Program-made: the position numbers and the translations under genes
IMG/VR virus record: IMGVR_UViG_3300025881_001243
Span: 3,257 to 67,256 of that record
DNA: 64,000 bases
Direction: 5' to 3' (one strand)
Source of the DNA: a virus
Part shown: one piece after another, positions 1,891-64,000 of the stretch
Layout: the number at the start of each line of letters is the position of its first letter
Numbering within the stretch: the stretch's first letter is position 1
The notes under the pieces: model-generated
Seen by the model: only the letters and a program-made list of their open reading frames with translations
Told to the model about the DNA's origin: nothing
The model's database searches: none

Positions 1891-3384
1891 ATGCGCAGAA
1901 GAAGAGTACGTAAAGTAAAAATTGCACCTATTATTAGTGATGGGCCTCTTAGAGTATCTCCGCGTAAAGTAACAAAAAAGGTAAATGAACTTAAGGTTAA
2001 GCCTACTGATAATATAGTTCCTAATAAACATAGAGTAGTTAAACCTATAAAAGATTCAATTCTTATAAATCCTTCTATTGTAATTCCACCTAAAAAAAGT
2101 CATCGAGTATTTATTATTGGTGGCGGTCCAGGTGTTGGAAAAGTTAAGTTAGCTGATTTAAAAGATGAAGATACTATATGCGTTAATGCTGCAGTGAATT
2201 TTGTACCAAACCCTACATATTTTATTACAATGGATTATAGTTACTTTGATCCTAAAAGAAAAATAAATACTGTTGATGAGGTAATTAAAAAATCTCAATA
2301 CTCATATTTTATACTTAACACTAATGGGGGTAATAGCAATATGAAAGTTATTGATGGTGAGGTAACTGATGTTAGGCATAATTTTGTATATAAAGACTTA
2401 GATAAATTTAATAGAGTTATACCTTCTATAACAACATCAGCACCGAATACTGGTTTTGGTTTAACTGTTAATGATTTTTCTAATGGTAATAATAGTGGCT
2501 TTTGTGCTATTCAACTAGCAATTCTTTTAGGATATGAAGAAATTTATTTAATAGGGTATGATTTAAGTACATCTCCAACCGAAACACACTTTCATCAATT
2601 ATATGGTACACATAAACTTGGCTTCAGTGATAAAGTTTCTGGCTACCGAACTATTATAGAAAATAGTATTAAGTTATTAAATAAATCTAAAAGTAAAGCA
2701 AAAATAATCTCAATAACTCCTACTACAATATCTAATATAAAAACAACTAGTTTAGATAAAGTTCAATCAAATCCAATAATACGTAATAGCGAAAAAAAAT
2801 ATGTAATAGTTTCGTATTATACAGTTAATACTCCGTATGAACAAGAAGCAGCTAAACTCAGAAATTCTTTAGAAAGATTAAAGGTACCTTATGATATAGT
2901 AGGTGTACCTAATTTAGGTGACTGGCAAGCAAACACTAGATTTAAAGCTAAGTTTATGCAGGACATGCTAATTAAGCATAAAGGTAAATCTATCGTTTGG
3001 GTAGATAGCGATGCTGTTATCCATTCTTATCCATCATTATTTGATACTTATGATTGCGATGTTGCCGTACGATGGCAAGATTTTAGATGGAGAAAAAATG
3101 AATGTTTAAGTGGAACTATTTATTTAGAAAATAATTCAAAAACAATGGAATTATGTAAAAGATGGGAGAATGGTAATATTGCAGAAGGGCCTGGTGCTAA
3201 AACATTTGAGCAATGGAATTTAGGAAAGGTTATTGAAGAAATGAGAGCCGAAGGTAAAATTAGAGATGAAAATTTACCACCAGAATATACAATGATATTC
3301 GATAGCATGAGAGCAATGTACCCTAATGTAAATCCAGTAATTGAACATTTTCAAGCGAGTAGAAAATTAAGAAATACAATTTAA
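1891..3384 (+). CDS. two-domain glycosyltransferase-like protein (DUF115/Maf-like domain plus nucleotide-diphospho-sugar transferase domain)
   Basis: IIGGGP, ICVN, NSGFCAIQLAILLGYEEIYLIGYD; C-terminal WVDSDA DxD motif; basic N-terminal tail. Confidence 0.7.
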   Translation: MRRRRVRKVKIAPIISDGPLRVSPRKVTKKVNELKVKPTDNIVPNKHRVVKPIKDSILINPSIVIPPKKSHRVFIIGGGPGVGKVKLADLKDEDTICVNAAVNFVPNPTYFITMDYSYFDPKRKINTVDEVIKKSQYSYFILNTNGGNSNMKVIDGEVTDVRHNFVYKDLDKFNRVIPSITTSAPNTGFGLTVNDFSNGNNSGFCAIQLAILLGYEEIYLIGYDLSTSPTETHFHQLYGTHKLGFSDKVSGYRTIIENSIKLLNKSKSKAKIISITPTTISNIKTTSLDKVQSNPIIRNSEKKYVIVSYYTVNTPYEQEAAKLRNSLERLKVPYDIVGVPNLGDWQANTRFKAKFMQDMLIKHKGKSIVWVDSDAVIHSYPSLFDTYDCDVAVRWQDFRWRKNECLSGTIYLENNSKTMELCKRWENGNIAEGPGAKTFEQWNLGKVIEEMRAEGKIRDENLPPEYTMIFDSMRAMYPNVNPVIEHFQASRKLRNTI

Positions 3385-4761: not shown

Positions 4762-5301
4762 ATGAAGATAGAGTACATTATACCTACATTATATCGTGAC
4801 ACGTTGGATCGTGCAGTAACGTCAATTAAAAGAGAATGTACTGACCACAATATTCTAATATGTGGAGAGATTAAAGATGGGAGAGGTGTTGGAAATAGGA
4901 ATGATGGACTAAATAAAATTAGAATTGACAGTGATTGGATAATTTTTTTAGATGATGATGATTACCTTAATGAAGGATTTAGTAAACAATTAGATGATAC
5001 TTATGATATAGTTGTATTAAGAATGTCACAAGATGCATCTAACCCTTTTTACCCACCTAAAGTAATACCAAGATTAGAAGATAGTAGATTATATAGTGGA
5101 AACGTAGGATGTAATTTTGCTATAAAGACTTCTTTATATTTAAAACATAAATGGCTGTTTGATGTTACTGCTAAAAATCCAGATTGGAATTTTTTAGAAA
5201 AAGCATTATCACACACAAATAAAATAAAAGTAACTAATGAAATTTATTACGTTGCCCCCATGGGAGGTTATAACAAACTAAAACCAACTGGTAAAAGATA
5301 A
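4762..5301 (+). CDS. glycosyltransferase, GT2-like
   Basis: IIPT..R, RN.GL, IIFLDDDD motifs. Confidence 0.75.
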   Translation: MKIEYIIPTLYRDTLDRAVTSIKRECTDHNILICGEIKDGRGVGNRNDGLNKIRIDSDWIIFLDDDDYLNEGFSKQLDDTYDIVVLRMSQDASNPFYPPKVIPRLEDSRLYSGNVGCNFAIKTSLYLKHKWLFDVTAKNPDWNFLEKALSHTNKIKVTNEIYYVAPMGGYNKLKPTGKR

Positions 5302-17949: not shown

Positions 17950-19968
17950 ATGGGAGAGATATATCCAGAAGAAGACAGCATCAAAAAAGAGCCAGGTAAA
18001 ATTAAAAAAGGAAATAGTCTCACAATCCTTGATACGTATGGAACCAATGTAACTGACTTAGCAGTGAATAAAAAACTAGATCCAGTTATTGGTAGAGAAG
18101 ATGAAATTCTAAGAGTTGTACAAATTTTAGGTAGACGTAGAAAAAACAATCCTGTTTTAGTAGGAGAACCTGGTGTAGGTAAGACTGCAATTGTAGAAGG
18201 TTTGGCTTCTCGTATTATTGAAGGTAATGTTCCTGTTACTTTACAAGGAAAAATTATTTATACATTAGAACTGTCTACTATAGTTGCAGGTACAAAATAT
18301 CGAGGGCAGTTTGAAGAAAGAATGAAAGCAATAGTTGATGAGTTAATTGAAAATCCTCATGTAATTATTTTTATAGATGAACTTCACACTATTATGGGGG
18401 CAGGTGGATCTACAGGATCTTTAGATGCTGCTAATATTATTAAGCCTGCATTAGCCCGTGGTGAAATCAGATGTATAGGAGCAACTACTTTTGATGAATT
18501 TAGAGAAAGTATTGAATCTGATGGCGCATTGGATAGAAGGTTTCAAAAGGTTGTAATTGAACCTCCTTCATTAGAAGAAACTGTTGAAATTTTATCTCAC
18601 CTAAGACATAAGTATTCTGATTTTCATAATGTAAATTACTCTGATGAAATTATCCAAATGATAGTTAAGGTTGCTGACCAATACATGATGGATAGATATT
18701 TTCCAGATAAAGCAGTAGATATTTTAGATGAGGTAGGTTCTTATAAGCATCTTAAGCATATTAAGATTCCTAAAAAGATAAAAAATCTAGAAGCTAAATT
18801 AATAATTAAACAAAACGAAAAGAAAGATGCAGTAAAGTCACAGCGTTATGAACTCGCTGCTCAAAATAGAGATGACTGTTTAAATATTCAATCTAAAATT
18901 TCTAGAGAATACAAATCATGGAAGGCTGAATTATCAGAAGTGAAAATGGAAATTACTGAAGATGATATTTTATATGTAATTTCTAAAGCAACAGGTATTC
19001 CTGTAGAAAAGATAACAGACAAAGAACATAAGAACCTATTAGGTATTAATAAACATCTATCATCTAAAGTAATGGGACAAGATGAAGCTATTAATAAAAT
19101 ATCAATGACCATCCAACGAAACCGAGTAGGTATACGAAAGAGAAACAGGACTATGGGTAATTTTATTTTCTTAGGTCCAACTGGTGTAGGTAAGACTCAA
19201 TTAGCCAAAGAGATAAGTTCTTATATGTTTAATTCTGAAGAAGATCTTATTCGTATAGATATGACCGAATATATGGAAGCTCATTCTGTTTCTAAATTAA
19301 TAGGAGCACCTCCTGGTTATATAGGGCATGAGGGTGGTGGCTTTTTAACAGAGCAGGTGAAAAGAAAACCGCATTCCGTTATATTATTTGACGAGGTAGA
19401 GAAAGCCCATCCAGAAGTCTTTAATGTATTACTTCAAATGTTAGATGATGGTTATTTAACCGACTCATTAGGTAGAACTATTGATTTTAGAAACTGTCTT
19501 GTTATTTTAACATCAAACACAGGATCAAGAAAGGTTCAAGAATTTGGAACCGGTATTGGTTTTAGCAGAAAAACTGTTGCTGAAGAACAAGCAGAAGAAA
19601 AGAGTATTATTAATAAAGCCCTTAAGTCAAAATTTGCACCAGAATTTTTAAATAGGATTGATGAAGTAATTGTTTTTAATTCTCTTACAAAAAATACTGT
19701 AATGTCAATTTTAAATAAAGAATGTAAAGAACTTGCAGAGAACCTAGTAGATGTAGGAGAATATACATTGAAAATATCTAAGGGTGCTAAAGATATTATT
19801 TTGGATCAAGGCTTTGATCCTAAGTACGGTGCTAGGCCACTAAGAAGAGCACTAGAGCGATTAATAGAAAATCCTGTAGCAGAAATGATTCTTAAGAAAG
19901 AAATCGAAGAAGGTGATATCATTAAAGTTACAGGTTTAAAAGGTATTTTAACAATTAAAAAAGATTAA
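17950..19968 (+). CDS. clpC: ClpC-like AAA+ chaperone/protease ATPase lacking the N-terminal repeat domain
   Basis: [33 protein letters not shown]-like coiled coil, [23 protein letters not shown] motifs. Confidence 0.88.
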
Positions 19969-20023
19969 ACCTTTTATGTTTTTTACATATAAAAATAAAA
20001 TAATACTTTAATCTTAAACAAGA

Positions 20024-46529: not shown

Positions 46530-47018
46530 ATGGTAGAATATAAAAATAGACACGGAGACGTTTACACGTTCACAAAACAAGAAGATGGGTCGGTCCTATG
46601 GGAAGGTTCATTTGAGCACTGTAGAATTGGAAGTTCTAATGATTATAAGTTAGCTTATCAAAATTACTGTAAGGATAGTTCTGGGATAGGAATTCATCCT
46701 ATGCACATTGAAGATTTTAAAGAAGCAATTCATGAATCAATCTATGATGAAAATGATCGATATGTAGGACCTAGTACTATAGGAAAGCAATACCAAAATC
46801 TAGTAAAGTCAAATCCATGGATCAGTATGGTAGATCCGAGCGGAGGACCGTATATTAATGAGCATTCTAATCTAGATATTTTTGGTAAAGAATTCAAAGG
46901 CCTTTGTGTTCAATATTTTTCACCAGTTAAAACAGGTTATGTAATTAATACTTATGGTAAATTTGATCACCTAGCAGATACTAAAATCATAGGAGGTATA
47001 ATTAATACTTCTGAATGA
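46530..47018 (+). CDS. hypothetical phage protein
   Basis: NRHGD..TF, MVDPSGGPYI motifs. Confidence 0.65.
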   Translation: MVEYKNRHGDVYTFTKQEDGSVLWEGSFEHCRIGSSNDYKLAYQNYCKDSSGIGIHPMHIEDFKEAIHESIYDENDRYVGPSTIGKQYQNLVKSNPWISMVDPSGGPYINEHSNLDIFGKEFKGLCVQYFSPVKTGYVINTYGKFDHLADTKIIGGIINTSE

Positions 47019-47085
47019 TGAAACTTTTTTTAAACTAAGTATATAATAATAAATCCAAACGGATTAATAAGTTCTATGAAATTAT

Positions 47086-47514
47086 GGGAAGGCACAGAAC
47101 GGAAAACTTTAGGTAGCTCCTAAATGATTATTCCAATTATGTGTAGATGCGTTGCTGAAAAATTCCTGAGCAAAAGGGAATAAGGCACTTGGCTAGGGCG
47201 ATGGTTCGCTGATATCTCAAATGAGAAATTCAGAACTGGTTAATCACCAGAGCTAAAGGTTTAACGCATTAAAAATCTAACAGAGATTTTGCAAAGACTT
47301 CCAGGTAAGCAAACCGCCGAATCCTGGTTAATGACTGAACAACGCAAAGAGTATGTGGCGTAAGGTACACTTGAAGATTATGATAATCAATTACGATGAT
47401 TAAACCTCGGCCGGTTTAATTAAGTAATAGGACGGCAGTCCAAAGAGTGGTAGTCTAATATAAAGCAGCTTTCGTTAATAAAGGTATTCTCAAATCCTTT
47501 CGCATCGTCTTCCT
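47086..47514 (+). ncRNA. large structured ncRNA, possibly GOLLD/ROOL-related
   Basis: ORF-free; ends pair (ggaaggc/gtcttcc; gatgcg 47146/cgcatc 47501); many hairpins; promoter-like motif 47021-47047; T run at the 3' end. Confidence 0.65.
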
Positions 47515-47535
47515 TTTTTATTAAATCAATCAACA

Positions 47536-48018
47536 ATGGCAAAAGTAAAAACAATTACAGTAAATGGTAAAGCTTCTGAGTATGATGTTACATATACTAA
47601 AGCGTATGTAGCAAAAATCATCTCAAATCAATCAGATTTATATTCAGAAGTCTCTTCAGGCAGTCTTCCATACAATGCAATAAAGGAAATTTACATAGAT
47701 GGTATTTTAGAAGCTGAATTAATAGGCTCTAAACTTTATGCAGTTTTACCAAACAAAAAACCTAAATACGACCCTTACATAGATCGCCAAGAACCTGTGC
47801 AAGAAGAGTTTGATGAATCACATGCATTAGACGAGGTTTTAAATGATATGATTGAATCTATGAACGAAGAAGAGTTAGAAGAATTTTACGGGGAAATTCA
47901 AGATATGCATATAAAAGATACCCCAACAAAAATTTATCTACAAAGTGTTACTGCACCGCCACCGTACTGGGTTACTGATACTACATTAGGTGATGTAAAG
48001 ATAAATTACTCTTCTTAA
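47536..48018 (+). CDS. acidic hypothetical protein
   Basis: ORF. Confidence 0.6.
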   Translation: MAKVKTITVNGKASEYDVTYTKAYVAKIISNQSDLYSEVSSGSLPYNAIKEIYIDGILEAELIGSKLYAVLPNKKPKYDPYIDRQEPVQEEFDESHALDEVLNDMIESMNEEELEEFYGEIQDMHIKDTPTKIYLQSVTAPPPYWVTDTTLGDVKINYSS

Positions 48019-61203: not shown

Positions 61204-64000
61204 ATGGCATTCAATCTAAAAGAATACATCATCTACAGAACTGAGGTTCAAAGAGAACTTTTTAACGGAGAGGTAGATGAAAACTTCAAGGCAGTAGCAA
61301 ACCCATGGGTAGATAATAGGTCTTACGATACCGGGCATGTAGTATATCACCCAGTTGAGGTTGTTAGTGCTACTGGGACTCCGGAAGAAACCTTAACTTG
61401 GTGGAGAGCTAATAAAAGAACAACACAAGGCGCGTTTGATACTAATGAATGGGATATCATTGGAGGTATAGGTACTGGTGATATAACAGTAAGTGGATCA
61501 AATGGGTATGGTAAAGTATTAGTTAATTATACTGGCCCAACACCAGCCCTCGCAGCGGATATCGATTTTACATTAGCGTCTACAACTGATAATGATACTC
61601 TTAGATTAATAGCAGGCCCAGGTATTAGTTTTCAATATGACAATACAGTTAAGGCAATTAAGATAATAAATAATGGTAATGCAGGTGAGGTAAATCAAGG
61701 TTTAAATATAGGAACAGGTGGACAAGATTTGTTTGCTGGAATGAGTGGCCAAGATTTAACATTTAGAGGGCTTAACGTAACTAATGTTACCGGTACTGGT
61801 GAAGTTTTAGAAATTCAATTAGATGCTGGAAACAATAACGTAGTTTATAATTTTGATGAAGGTGCTCTTGAATTACAGAATTTAAATAGTGGGCAGCCTC
61901 TTATTGATTATTTGGATGATGTTGCAATAACTAATGTACAGAATGCTGATCTTTTACAATGGGATGGTAATAATTGGATAAACATTGCACCTAGTTCTGC
62001 TGGTCTAACTGGGGCACAAGGTACGCAAGGTACACAAGGTATTCAAGGTACGCAAGGTTTACAAGGTATTCAAGGTTTACAGGGTACTCAAGGTATTACA
62101 GGAACTCAAGGTATTCAAGGTATTCAAGGTACACAAGGTATTCAAGGTATTACAGGTGCAGGGACTCAAGGTATCCAAGGTATCCAAGGTATTACAGGTG
62201 CAGGGACTCAAGGTATCCAAGGTATTCAAGGTATTACAGGTACAGGAACTCAAGGTATTACAGGTATTCAAGGTACACAAGGTATCCAAGGTACAACTGG
62301 AGCCGATGGTACTTTTGGGGGTGCTACTTTCGATTATCAATTTAATACAACATTAGTAGTTGACGATCCTGGTTTTAGTTATGCTTCTTTAAATACAGCA
62401 AACCAAAGCCTAGCTACCATTATGTCTATAAATGATAATGGTGTTACTGGAACTGACATATCTACGTTCTTAACTACAATACAATCAAGTACTTCTATAC
62501 CTAAAGGGCATGTTAGGATATCATCAAAAGCTGATTCAAATGAATTTATACTTTGGCAAATAACTGAAGTATATGACAGACCTTCTGCTGGAGGTACATG
62601 GTGGGAATTAGAAGTAGTACCTGTTGCATTTACTGAAACTGCACCATTTACTATGGATGAAGACATATTAATATCATTTGTTGTAACAGGAGATAAAGGT
62701 GCACAAGGAACTCAAGGAACTCAAGGAATTACAGGTTCTCAAGGTGCACAAGGTACATTCGGTACTCAGGGAATTACTGGTGCAGGGACTCAAGGTATTC
62801 AAGGTATTCAAGGTTTAACTGGTGTTGGGGCCCAAGGCGCACAAGGTACATTCGGTACACAAGGTATTCAAGGAATAACTGGAAGTGTAGCCTTTTTAGG
62901 TAATTGGTATTTAAGAGATACAACAACAGGGGTAGCTGATCCAACATCTGGTGAATTTATTGGAAATTCTACAACAAATTTTAGTAATGTCACTTTCTTT
63001 GAATTAAATACAACAGACTGGGGTACTACAGGTTCTAATGGTATAAATAGAGGAGCATACTTGGAGAAGGTTTGTCCTGGATCAATTATGCATATTGAAG
63101 ATCCAACAACTGGTGATGAATGGCAATGGGAAGTAGATGATAATGTTCTCTCTTCTTCTACAACATTTAGAGAATTAACTGTTACCTTTCTTGGTGGACC
63201 AAGTGGTATTGGAACACTGGATTATGTATATGAAGTTAGATTTGATACTGCTGGTTGCGAAGGCGCCCAAGGTATAACTGGTTTACAAGGTATACAAGGT
63301 ATAGCTGGTAGCATTTCGGCTCAAGGTACTCAAGGTACACAAGGAATTACTGGAACCGGGACACAAGGAACTCAAGGTATTCAAGGAATTACAGGAACAC
63401 AAGGAACACAAGGTACACAAGGAATTACTGGAACAGGAACACAAGGAACACAAGGAACTCAAGGTATTCAAGGAATTACTGGAACAGGAATACAAGGTAT
63501 ACAAGGAATTACCGGAACTGGTACTCAAGGAACCCAAGGTATAACTGGTTTACAAGGTATACAAGGTATAGCTGGTAGCGTTTCGGCTCAAGGTACTCAA
63601 GGTACACAAGGAATTACTGGGACAGGAACACAAGGAACGCAAGGAACTCAAGGTATTCAAGGAATTACTGGAACAGGAATACAAGGTATACAAGGAATTA
63701 CCGGAACTGGTACTCAAGGAACCCAAGGTATAACTGGTTTACAAGGTATACAAGGTATAGCTGGTAGCGTTTCGGCTCAAGGTACTCAAGGTACTCAAGG
63801 TATTCAAGGTATAACTGGTTTACAAGGAACTCAAGGTTTACAGGGTATTACTGGAACTGGTGTTCAAGGAACGCAAGGTACTCAAGGTATTCAAGGTATA
63901 ACTGGTTTACAAGGAACTCAAGGTTTACAGGGTATTACTGGAACTGGTGTTCAAGGAACGCAAGGTACTCAAGGTATTCAAGGTATAACTGGTTTACAAG
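61204..64000 (+). CDS. collagen-like tail/fibre protein, runs off the window end
   Basis: Open frame from ATG 61204 (MAFNLKEYIIYR...); Gly-X-Gln/Thr triplet blocks from ~62000; absent from the track because there is no stop in the window. Confidence 0.85.
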   Translation, partial: MAFNLKEYIIYRTEVQRELFNGEVDENFKAVANPWVDNRSYDTGHVVYHPVEVVSATGTPEETLTWWRANKRTTQGAFDTNEWDIIGGIGTGDITVSGSNGYGKVLVNYTGPTPALAADIDFTLASTTDNDTLRLIAGPGISFQYDNTVKAIKIINNGNAGEVNQGLNIGTGGQDLFAGMSGQDLTFRGLNVTNVTGTGEVLEIQLDAGNNNVVYNFDEGALELQNLNSGQPLIDYLDDVAITNVQNADLLQWDGNNWINIAPSSAGLTGAQGTQGTQGIQGTQGLQGIQGLQGTQGITGTQGIQGIQGTQGIQGITGAGTQGIQGIQGITGAGTQGIQGIQGITGTGTQGITGIQGTQGIQGTTGADGTFGGATFDYQFNTTLVVDDPGFSYASLNTANQSLATIMSINDNGVTGTDISTFLTTIQSSTSIPKGHVRISSKADSNEFILWQITEVYDRPSAGGTWWELEVVPVAFTETAPFTMDEDILISFVVTGDKGAQGTQGTQGITGSQGAQGTFGTQGITGAGTQGIQGIQGLTGVGAQGAQGTFGTQGIQGITGSVAFLGNWYLRDTTTGVADPTSGEFIGNSTTNFSNVTFFELNTTDWGTTGSNGINRGAYLEKVCPGSIMHIEDPTTGDEWQWEVDDNVLSSSTTFRELTVTFLGGPSGIGTLDYVYEVRFDTAGCEGAQGITGLQGIQGIAGSISAQGTQGTQGITGTGTQGTQGIQGITGTQGTQGTQGITGTGTQGTQGTQGIQGITGTGIQGIQGITGTGTQGTQGITGLQGIQGIAGSVSAQGTQGTQGITGTGTQGTQGTQGIQGITGTGIQGIQGITGTGTQGTQGITGLQGIQGIAGSVSAQGTQGTQGIQGITGLQGTQGLQGITGTGVQGTQGTQGIQGITGLQGTQGLQGITGTGVQGTQGTQGIQGITGLQ
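62005..64000 (+). repeat. collagen-coding 9-bp-period repeats with longer internal duplications
   Basis: caaggt/caagga periodicity in blocks ~62005-62310, ~62695-62885 and ~63262-64000. Confidence 0.9.

Follow-up and report, generated by a model that had tools for sequence, protein, structure and literature searches.

A structured RNA in the tRNA island of an uncultured phage, probably built of two manA-type modules within a single closing helix

The stretch of DNA analysed here (the window) comprises 64 kb of a 67-kb virus record of IMG/VR (IMGVR_UViG_3300025881_001243, positions 3,257 to 67,256), whose estimated completeness is 37%. Its large open reading frames (ORFs) are all on the plus strand, and its GC content is about 33%. 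The element described in this work is located in a gap of 517 nucleotides (nt), 47019-47535, between an ORF at 46530-47018 and an ORF at 47536-48018, both of which are without a PHROG or Pfam match. A previous interpretation made from the letters only (the sequence-only reading) had placed here a highly structured non-coding RNA, ORF-free, richer in GC than its flanks and situated in a tRNA region. The description of the locus was borne out: no plus-strand ORF of at least 30 amino acids (aa) is present in the gap, which is overlapped by two short minus-strand ORFs (33 aa and 44 aa); the GC content is 0.38-0.39 within the gap as against 0.27-0.33 in the flanks; and genes for tRNA-Leu (45716), tRNA-Arg (46438) and tRNA-Gln (52624) flank the element in the window, as tRNA genes do in its relatives. 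The comparisons described below support well that the element is a distant, sub-threshold relative of the manA RNAs and consists of two manA-type modules.

Folding of the single sequence differed only modestly from shuffles (z = -2.02 for the plus strand and -1.52 for the minus strand), and the case for a structured RNA therefore rests on comparison. Homologues were collected from four sources. With the downstream protein as query, 15 viral loci were obtained, and the element lies upstream in 12 of them; an 18-nt pattern taken from the best-conserved stretch matched 18 viral loci (17 true) and, in metagenomes, 51 loci (48 true); and a pattern from the first module added one more locus (L140). 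The set contains 49 distinct homologous sequences, and the 39 that are near full length are 59.8-98.1% identical to the RNA of the window. Five pattern matches (L027, L093, L112, L119 and L141) were discarded as chance matches. The sole pattern match in genome contigs (L139), which is without an nhmmer match, was also regarded as chance.

The structure was written by hand from these sequences and counted on an alignment of 40 rows of distinct homologues (A2). It consists of 95 pairs in 21 helices, and 98.3% of the 3774 cells are in standard pairs. Both sides are changed in 36 of the 95 pairs, as against 8.6±1.8 pairs in shuffles, none of which reached 36 (0/500). When the 3' partners were shifted, these slid controls gave 1-7 double-sided pairs. 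The covariation among homologues, whose absence the sequence-only reading had named as refuting, is thus present, and 47093-47506 of the window forms a structured RNA. A blind scan of all A2 column pairs gave a signal that was swamped by clade structure.

Two helices and seven hairpins had been proposed previously. The second helix (47146-47151/47501-47506), named P1 here, was confirmed: all of its 240 cells in A2 are paired, with two double-sided pairs and 13 changes from G-C to G-U, so that 13 cells are G-U. In P1, L097 has G-C in place of an A-U pair, and L032, which is the homologue farthest from the window, has U-G there and U-A in place of a C-G pair. The outermost helix (47087-47093/47507-47513) can pair in 97.5% of cells, but its covariation is no better than that of the control slid by +1. 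A helix at the equivalent position is present in the single-module relatives described below. The seven hairpins all correspond to pairing regions. Those written as ccagg/cctgg, ttaaacc/ggtttaa, ggac-ggca-gtcc and aaagg/ccttt are 100% paired, with 2, 4, 2 and 1 double-sided changes, respectively, and tttagg/cctaaa is 98.1% paired with one such change; aaaatct/agatttt, however, is 97.9% paired with zero covariation, and ctggt/accag is valid as four pairs only (90.6% paired).

Several other helices were tried on A2 and rejected. A helix GCG/CGC around AUGGUU was replaced by G(G/A)(G/A)C-GAUG-GUUC. A helix AGA/UCU around GUGGUAG is broken in many rows by changes of G to U or A. A counterpart of the penultimate hairpin of manA in module 2 pairs in L032 only, and neither of two registers of the module 2 junction-closing stem is consistent.

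The positions of the parts are listed in Table 1. The 5' hairpin domain (96-98% paired, five double-sided pairs) is the counterpart of the 5' hairpin in the Rfam manA model. It is followed by P1, which alone encloses both modules. In module 1, five of the seven pairs of the junction stem (47188-94/47251-58) are changed on both sides, and the junction carries G(G/A)(G/A)C-GAUG-GUUC, UCUC-AAAU-GAGA and CUGG-UUAAUCA-CCAG (A2 helices 7-11). All helices of module 2 are 100% paired, with 11 double-sided pairs, and the loops of its junction hairpins are AUGAU (GUGGU in L032), UCGGCC and GGCA. Three loops of module 2 are invariant: one of 12 nt at 47346-57, UCGGCC, which contains the self-complementary GGCC, and GGCA, which is a GNRA loop. 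Contacts between RNAs are mediated by elements of this sort.

Table 1. Features of the element and its surroundings. Positions are those of the window; A2 is the alignment of homologues and R1 the covariance model of single-module phage RNAs.
Feature	Position	Strand	Basis
Phage-type promoter: GAAAC, 18 nt, TATAATAATAAA	47019..47053	+	recurrent motif
Leader hairpin AAUCC-AAAC-GGAUU	47052..47065	+	between promoter and core (A2)
Candidate proximal -10 element TGAAATTAT (TGATATAAT in L100)	47077..47085	+	kept in divergent clades
Outer helix, 5' strand (partner 47507-47513)	47087..47093	+	97.5% pairable
5' hairpin domain: CACA/UGUG, GGAA/UUCC, UUUAGG/CCUAAA, loop UAGCU	47093..47143	+	A2 helices 1-3
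Closing helix P1, 5' strand GAUGCG (pairs with 47501-47506)	47146..47151	+	A2 helix 4
Module 1, manA-type: GCUGAAAAA-hairpin-UAAGGC	47154..47327	+	A2 helices 5-14; Rfam manA, R1
Module 1, three-stem junction	47188-47258	+	A2
Module 1, candidate kissing loop AUCA with UGAU 47381-47384 of module 2	47243..47246	+	column-pair scan
Module 1, hairpin	47266-47292	+	A2
Candidate inter-module helix AGACU with AGUCU 47452-47456	47295..47299	+	column-pair scan
Module 1, GGUA hairpin	47301-47327	+	A2
Module 2, manA-type: ACUGAACAA-hairpin-UAAGGU with invariant 12-nt loop; GUGGUAGUCUA; AAAGCAGCU	47334..47500	+	A2 helices 15-21; Rfam manA, R1
Module 2, junction hairpins	47376-88; 47390-47428 (loop UCGGCC); 47430-41 (GNRA loop GGCA)	+	A2
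Module 2, GGUA hairpin	47480-47500	+	A2
3' strands of P1 (CGCAUC) and outer helix (GUCUUCC)	47501..47513	+	A2
U-run (T6)	47514..47519	+	not called terminator by simple scan
Downstream ORF, 160 aa, family-less	47536..48018	+	same RNA-library contigs as element

By eye, both halves repeat the same series in the same order: (G/A)CUGAAnAA-hairpin-UAAGG(C/U)AC-CUUG, a junction with a (G/A)UG(G/A)U loop, (A/U)GGU, AAAG(A/C) and a hairpin with a loop that starts with GGUA. A hairpin that would stand between the junction and the GGUA hairpin seems to have been lost from module 2, whose UAGUCUA resembles both strands of the GUAGAC...GUCUAU stem of relatives with the loop gone. It should be mentioned that the module 2 loop AAAGAGUAUGUG (47346-47357) includes UAUGUG, the letters of the 3' strand of the first stem (UAUGUGU, 47138-47144). 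In L032 the first stem is CACUC/GAGUG, and the same module 2 loop presents GAGU. To judge from these letters, the 5' end could in both lineages pair with this loop instead. One locus (L140:10060-10500, minus strand) has UAAAGUAC in place of the otherwise invariant UAAGGUAC and two mismatches in the long hairpin of module 2; these deviations may reflect a real variant or an assembly error.

At gathering thresholds, only the three tRNAs were found by Rfam in the whole window. When 46900-47700 was scanned at E<=10, the only meaningful family was manA (RF01745), which matched 47134-47332 over the full length of the model (31.7 bits, E 2.8e-6); module 1 gave an E value of 5.5e-8 in another scan, and module 2 scanned alone gave 14.8 bits (E 0.07). 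Both halves of L032 match manA, with 27 and 29 bits (E 9.1e-9 and 7.6e-8 in a second scan). The scores of its modules span 27-32.9 bits, with module 2 at 29-29.8 bits (E 1.2e-5 and 7.6e-8). No manA match was found elsewhere in five related phage records. The scan with cmscan that had been suggested for GOLLD, ROOL, group I intron, RNase P and tmRNA thus placed no curated family at the element at threshold. Rfam includes profiles of GOLLD and ROOL (PMC12286853); neither matched, at gathering thresholds in the window or at E<=10 in 46900-47700, and the suggestion of a compact GOLLD or ROOL variant is given up. Group I intron, RNase P, tmRNA and other families gave no match at the element beyond chance level (E >5). 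The 3' GAGTGGTAG...GGTATTCTCA pattern, which had been likened to GOLLD-type 3' domains, is made up of a GUGGU motif of manA type and, after it, the terminal GGUA hairpin. The alternative suggestion of a new class does not hold in full either, because the RNA is a duplicated and divergent one of manA type.

The original description presents manA as a riboswitch candidate in 5' untranslated regions of marine bacteria and T4-like cyanophages (Weinberg et al. 2010, PMC2864571). Several features of manA are found twice in the element. The CUGAAUAA-hairpin-UAAGG unit, with two outer pairs, occurs at 47154-86 and 47334-66; one outer pair is changed from G-C to A-U in L032, and four of the six pairs of the inner stem are changed on both sides. 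A three-stem junction with a GUGGUG-type loop, a middle hairpin and a uaACCA-type loop is present in both modules, the junction-closing stem of module 2 not being fixed. The terminal GGUA-loop hairpins, CCAGG-UAAGC...-CCUGG and AAAGG-UAUUC...-CCUUU, are both 100% paired and have double-sided changes. Two properties of manA were not observed. The element has a single closing helix for both modules instead of one for each, and both strands of the manA closing helix are deleted in the cmscan alignment of module 1; these strands are marked 'pseudoknot?' in the original description (PMC2864571). Furthermore, the element does not share the location of manA in 5' untranslated regions, before genes for mannose/fructose, nucleotide synthesis, chaperones or photosynthesis.

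With the looser pattern GACTGAACAA-N14-22-TAAGGTAC, 67 viral loci were obtained, 50 of them new. Five of them (L041, L051, L054, L062 and L074) were discarded by eye as chance matches in coding DNA. The other 45 (within L038-L087) are single-module RNAs, 34 of them distinct, for example L039:3887-4040 on the minus strand. These relatives, with a module of about 155 nt, are common in uncultured phage contigs, and no published name for them was found. Their alignment (A3) is 93.5% paired, with a covariation score of 0.363 as against 0.146 in shuffles, and their closing helix of three pairs covaries (GGC/GCC, GUA/UAC and AUC/GAU). Eleven of the 12 single-module RNAs tested are below the manA cut-off of Rfam; only L078 is above it, at 82.2 bits. 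The Rfam model thus misses a large set of manA-like phage RNAs, which means that the family is much wider than its Rfam boundary.

A covariance model (R1) was built from 18 single-module phage RNAs, with rough calibration. It matches the bona fide manA L078 at 43.7 bits. In the window it has two matches and no others, at 47328-47477 with 25 bits (E 0.0035) and at 47148-47267 with 18.7 bits; it gives two matches each in L012 and L131 and one in L032, in the second module. The two independent models, Rfam manA and R1, thus agree on the modules, and this indicates that a module of manA type was duplicated internally within a single closing helix. That the element is homologous to the manA-type RNAs and duplicated is considered very probable. 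No report of paired or tandem manA modules was found in the literature, the supplements of PMC2864571 and of the 2026 preprint cited below, which possibly mention them, being outside the search. The possibility that the RNA is a new class unrelated to manA, with shared short motifs that are convergent or due to chance, was also considered. Every manA score is under the curated cut-off, the closing-helix strands are deleted as described above, and the genomic context is unlike that described for manA. Against this, Rfam manA and R1 mark the same two places and nothing else in the window and three relatives, the order of elements is identical to that of manA from the 5' hairpin through the GGUA hairpin, and the single-module phage RNAs form a graded series to bona fide manA. 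Such an independent origin is very improbable.

Conservation of the element far exceeds that of the proteins next to it. In loci whose downstream protein has only 48-78% identity, the RNA has 86-96%; compared with the window, the values for RNA and protein are 86.6% and 48% in L012, and 94.6% and 59% in L010. Even L032, with an overall identity of 60%, has the 44-nt stretch 47331-47374 unchanged.

The order tRNA-Leu, tRNA-Arg, element, tRNA-Gln is maintained in relatives. A same-strand tRNA-Arg lies no more than 1500 nt upstream in 36 of the 42 loci with enough flank, some of which are redundant, and only 97-98 nt away in four loci. The downstream side is variable. In five loci (L103, L107, L110, L114 and L115) a tRNA-Gly starts 20-21 nt after the closing helix, and in L107 it stands between the element and the homologue of the 160-aa ORF. 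In L131 and L140, tRNA-Gln is found 114 nt downstream of the element. In L032, a tmRNA-like gene of 117 nt (4806-4922, plus strand) lies directly after the element and is followed by a PhoH gene. This gene scores 54.9 bits with RF00023 (cut-off 47), with the two ends of the model (1-374) matched and the middle missing, and was not called by ARAGORN. The dependence of the downstream neighbour on the lineage argues against a gene-specific riboswitch and favours a stable RNA gene of the tRNA island. The tRNA called Gly (L107:3451-3524, plus strand, and also in the other four loci) has the anticodon ACC. In this type of locus the spacer ends with ...UUACCA immediately before the first base of the tRNA.

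Among the single-module relatives, tRNA genes are nearby in only one of the 45 loci, so that the link to tRNAs is peculiar to the two-module lineage; tRNA proximity as a general trait of manA-like RNAs was rejected on the same count. A divergent single-module RNA (L040:7496-7687, minus strand; R1 40.1 bits) stands at the head of an array of nine tRNAs, 247 nt upstream of tRNA-Leu, on a phage contig of 192 kb.

When 50,697 phage records were searched by blastn and megablast, neither the element nor a bona fide manA query gave a match, and 7 kb of surroundings gave a single matched piece, tRNA-like and 47 nt long. The best phage relatives of the ligase and of the ClpB-like ATPase are 30-54% identical and come from unrelated hosts. 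The window also encodes a sialyltransferase-like protein (1891-3384), a 672-aa ClpB/Lon-like ATPase (17950-19968), which shares 53.9% identity with proteins from uncultured phages of 0.6 Mb, and a collagen-like tail fibre (61204-63999).

The upstream AAAC-N17-TATAAT, which had been taken as the element's own promoter, is real as a motif. A simple scan for the sigma-70 consensus gave ATGAAA-18-TATAAT at 47018-47047 (10/12). The string TATAATAATAAA occurs in six exact plus-strand copies (1544, 11038, 34231, 44611, 47042 and 52251), each with (T/G)AAAC about 17-18 nt upstream, and most are followed at a short distance by a start codon. When at most one mismatch was allowed, 15 matches were counted over both strands, as against 7.0±2.8 in shuffles, and near-copies are seen at 19988, 43973 and 56221. 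The motif is kept in relatives, the divergent L128 included. From these letters, (T/G)AAAC-17/18 nt-TATAATAATAAA is probably a promoter class of the phage's own. The hairpin between promoter and core is less constant: it has AAUUC/GAAUU in many relatives, is replaced by unrelated hairpins in L128 and L100, and is deleted in L098 and L090.

The stretch or part of it is present in 20 public runs, six of which are RNA libraries. Contig coverage was checked in four RNA runs from four studies (X15, X17, X18 and X19), where the word depth over the element was 4.7, 74-110, 160 and 941, respectively. The element is thus transcribed, in the sense that it is present in RNA libraries of four studies. The contigs start at 47096, 47093 (right after an Illumina adapter), 47094 and 47071. 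The first three of these starts are 8-11 nt past the candidate -10 element and give a weak hint of a 5' end near 47093. Such a start would fit the proximal -10-like element, and the 5' strand of the outer helix, which may be upstream of the mature 5' end, would then fall outside the RNA. The contigs of X17, X18 and X19 leave the upstream ORF uncovered, which was not counted as evidence. A U-run downstream had also been described. It is present in the window, but it is absent in the clade of L128, L100, L097 and L131, and the contigs cross it into the next ORF, to at least 47603-47642 and, in X19, to 47905.

A possible mode of action is suggested by a recent preprint on manA. It describes, from cryo-electron microscopy, pentamers held by kissing loops (L5-L7', L8-L9' and L3-L8') and a contact between a GNRA loop and its receptor, the pentamers giving rise to decamers, octamers and a 60-mer icosahedral cage (bioRxiv 10.64898/2026.07.01.735769, July 2026). 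In the Rfam consensus of manA, the junction loops GUGGUG and uaACCA are complementary. When the unpaired columns of A2 were scanned for conserved complementary runs of at least 4, 17 candidates were obtained, three of them with double-sided change. One is AUCA/UGAU between the two modules: 160 of 160 cells are paired, a U-A pair is changed to C-G in L032, and a C-G pair is changed to U-G in 16 sequences. Another is AGACU/AGUCU, with 200 of 200 cells paired and one double-sided change, U-A to A-U in L032. If AUCA/UGAU holds, the fused modules might touch each other as neighbouring manA protomers are reported to do, with the loops tentatively assigned to L5 and L7. A kissing contact between the loop of the module 1 GGUA hairpin and UCGGCC was rejected, the first loop varying freely while UCGGCC is invariant.

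In view of the cages reported for manA, the element is read as a natural fused pair of such modules. With modest confidence, it is considered to be a phage non-coding RNA of about 415-460 nt that forms a stable particle of two manA-type modules. As to mechanism, that the RNA is a stable, probably self-associating product of the tRNA island and not a riboswitch is given close to an even chance, if anything slightly less. In this scheme, internal duplication of a single-module manA-like RNA would have given rise to the element. The RNA would be freed from a longer transcript running on into the next gene or tRNA, and would act as a stable particle itself, not as a switch for one gene. The two fused modules would probably dock on each other, with AUCA 47243-46/UGAU 47381-84 as the candidate contact. 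The 12-nt loop at 47346-57, the UCGGCC loop and the GGCA loop would be left for self-association or for a partner.

Several observations weigh against this interpretation. The manA cut-off of Rfam, 55.2 bits, is reached by neither module, and the R1 match of module 1 is weak (E 0.062, with rough calibration). The double-sided changes of both candidate contacts come from L032 alone, in a scan over many column pairs, and both contacts are therefore taken as hypothetical; moreover, module 1 has UGGU motifs, and 47125-28 is UGAU, either of which could serve the AUCA loop equally well as partner. Oligomerisation is reported only for bona fide single-module manA in vitro, in the preprint (10.64898/2026.07.01.735769). 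The near absence of tRNA genes around the single-module relatives (1/45) also belongs here. As for transcription, the contigs show presence in RNA libraries and bridging, and neither ends, levels nor a single transcript, and RNA libraries can hold DNA. The contigs (records 7, 12, 20 and 26) join the element and the downstream ORF, and this ORF begins 22 nt past the outer helix, both as in a leader.

These last points are the basis of another explanation, in which the element is a tandem riboswitch-like leader: two manA-type aptamers in a 5' untranslated region would sense a ligand, perhaps cooperatively, and control the 160-aa ORF. This would agree with the original proposal for manA (PMC2864571), with the joining of element and ORF in contigs of all four RNA-library studies, with the lack of a separate copy of the phage promoter motif between them and with the short distance from the outer helix to the ATG. 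The neighbour, however, changes to tRNA-Gly in L107, tRNA-Gln in L131 and L140 and a tmRNA-like gene in L032. No terminator, anti-terminator or sequestered ribosome-binding site was found at the element, the U-run is not conserved, the invariant loop of 12 nt exceeds what a ligand pocket usually needs, and RNA-only assemblies of manA are reported in the preprint (10.64898/2026.07.01.735769). A leader of this kind seems unlikely.

The element might also be a processing or scaffolding spacer of the tRNA-island transcript, which would guide cleavage by RNase P/E or stabilize the precursor and be functionless once freed. Its place within the conserved Leu-Arg-...-Gln order, the distance of 20-21 nt to a tRNA in five loci and the possible flank pairing 47087-93/47507-13, which resembles processing stems, are in line with this idea. 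A near-invariant covarying structure of about 360 nt with two elaborate junctions exceeds the needs of a spacer, and the single-module relatives are near tRNAs in 1/45 only; the spacer is thus quite improbable. A compact GOLLD or ROOL variant would account for a phage RNA near tRNA genes, as described for both (PMC12286853), but the lack of an Rfam match even at E<=10, a size of about half or less and motifs that are those of manA leave it hardly any room.

The fused pair of manA-type modules is thus preferred. A stronger form of it may be proposed, in which the element is a covalent dimer of a cage-forming protomer: AUCA/UGAU would replace the kiss between protomers, and the free loops would drive assembly of a new RNA-only particle in infection, made from the tRNA-island transcript and possibly acting on tRNAs or translation. 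This form is speculative and unlikely. If it is true, the manA-type RNAs overall would be structural RNAs like ROOL and GOLLD and not riboswitches. The family has been an orphan riboswitch candidate since 2010, and the 2026 preprint reports RNA-only cages. The location in a tRNA island, the changing neighbours and the high word depth in marine RNA libraries speak against gene-specific regulation and for a stable RNA. The two-module form with its single closing helix would also offer structural biology a fixed pair of protomers.

Like manA, the element has, in the same order, a 5' hairpin, a closing helix, CUGAAnAA-hairpin-UAAGG, a three-stem junction with GUGGU-like and A(C/U)CA-like loops, a hairpin and a GGUA hairpin, and both come from marine metagenomes and phages. 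Unlike manA, which has one module, it has two modules in one closing helix, scores of 15-33 bits, a module 2 without the hairpin from junction to GGUA hairpin, and one enlarged junction arm; it is located in the tRNA island of an uncultured large phage, whereas manA precedes mannose, nucleotide and photosynthesis genes of cyanophages. The GACUGAACAA-hairpin-UAAGGUACACUUGA unit of the single-module relatives recurs nearly letter for letter in module 2, and the UAGCU loop of the 5' hairpin, the GGUGGU and GAAAGC motifs and the GGGUGA...AAUCCC hairpin are also shared with them, although these relatives have a simpler junction arm and one module.

In the tandem glycine riboswitch, two homologous domains dock on each other, and there are a validated ligand, an expression platform and a conserved regulated operon. 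These three attributes were not seen for the element, which has in common with it two homologous structured domains in one RNA, whose docking is suggested here from the candidate contacts. ROOL and GOLLD are described as RNAs of phages and prophages that are of unknown function, are often near tRNA islands and form RNA-only nanocages (Kretsch et al. 2025, PMC12286853). The element gave no match to them in sequence or structure and is smaller, about half their size or less, and its assembly is proposed by analogy only. The analogy to large phage RNAs near tRNAs drawn in the sequence-only reading therefore fails as to family identity but may hold for how the element works: like ROOL and GOLLD, it is located in a phage tRNA island, and its fold family is reported to form cages.

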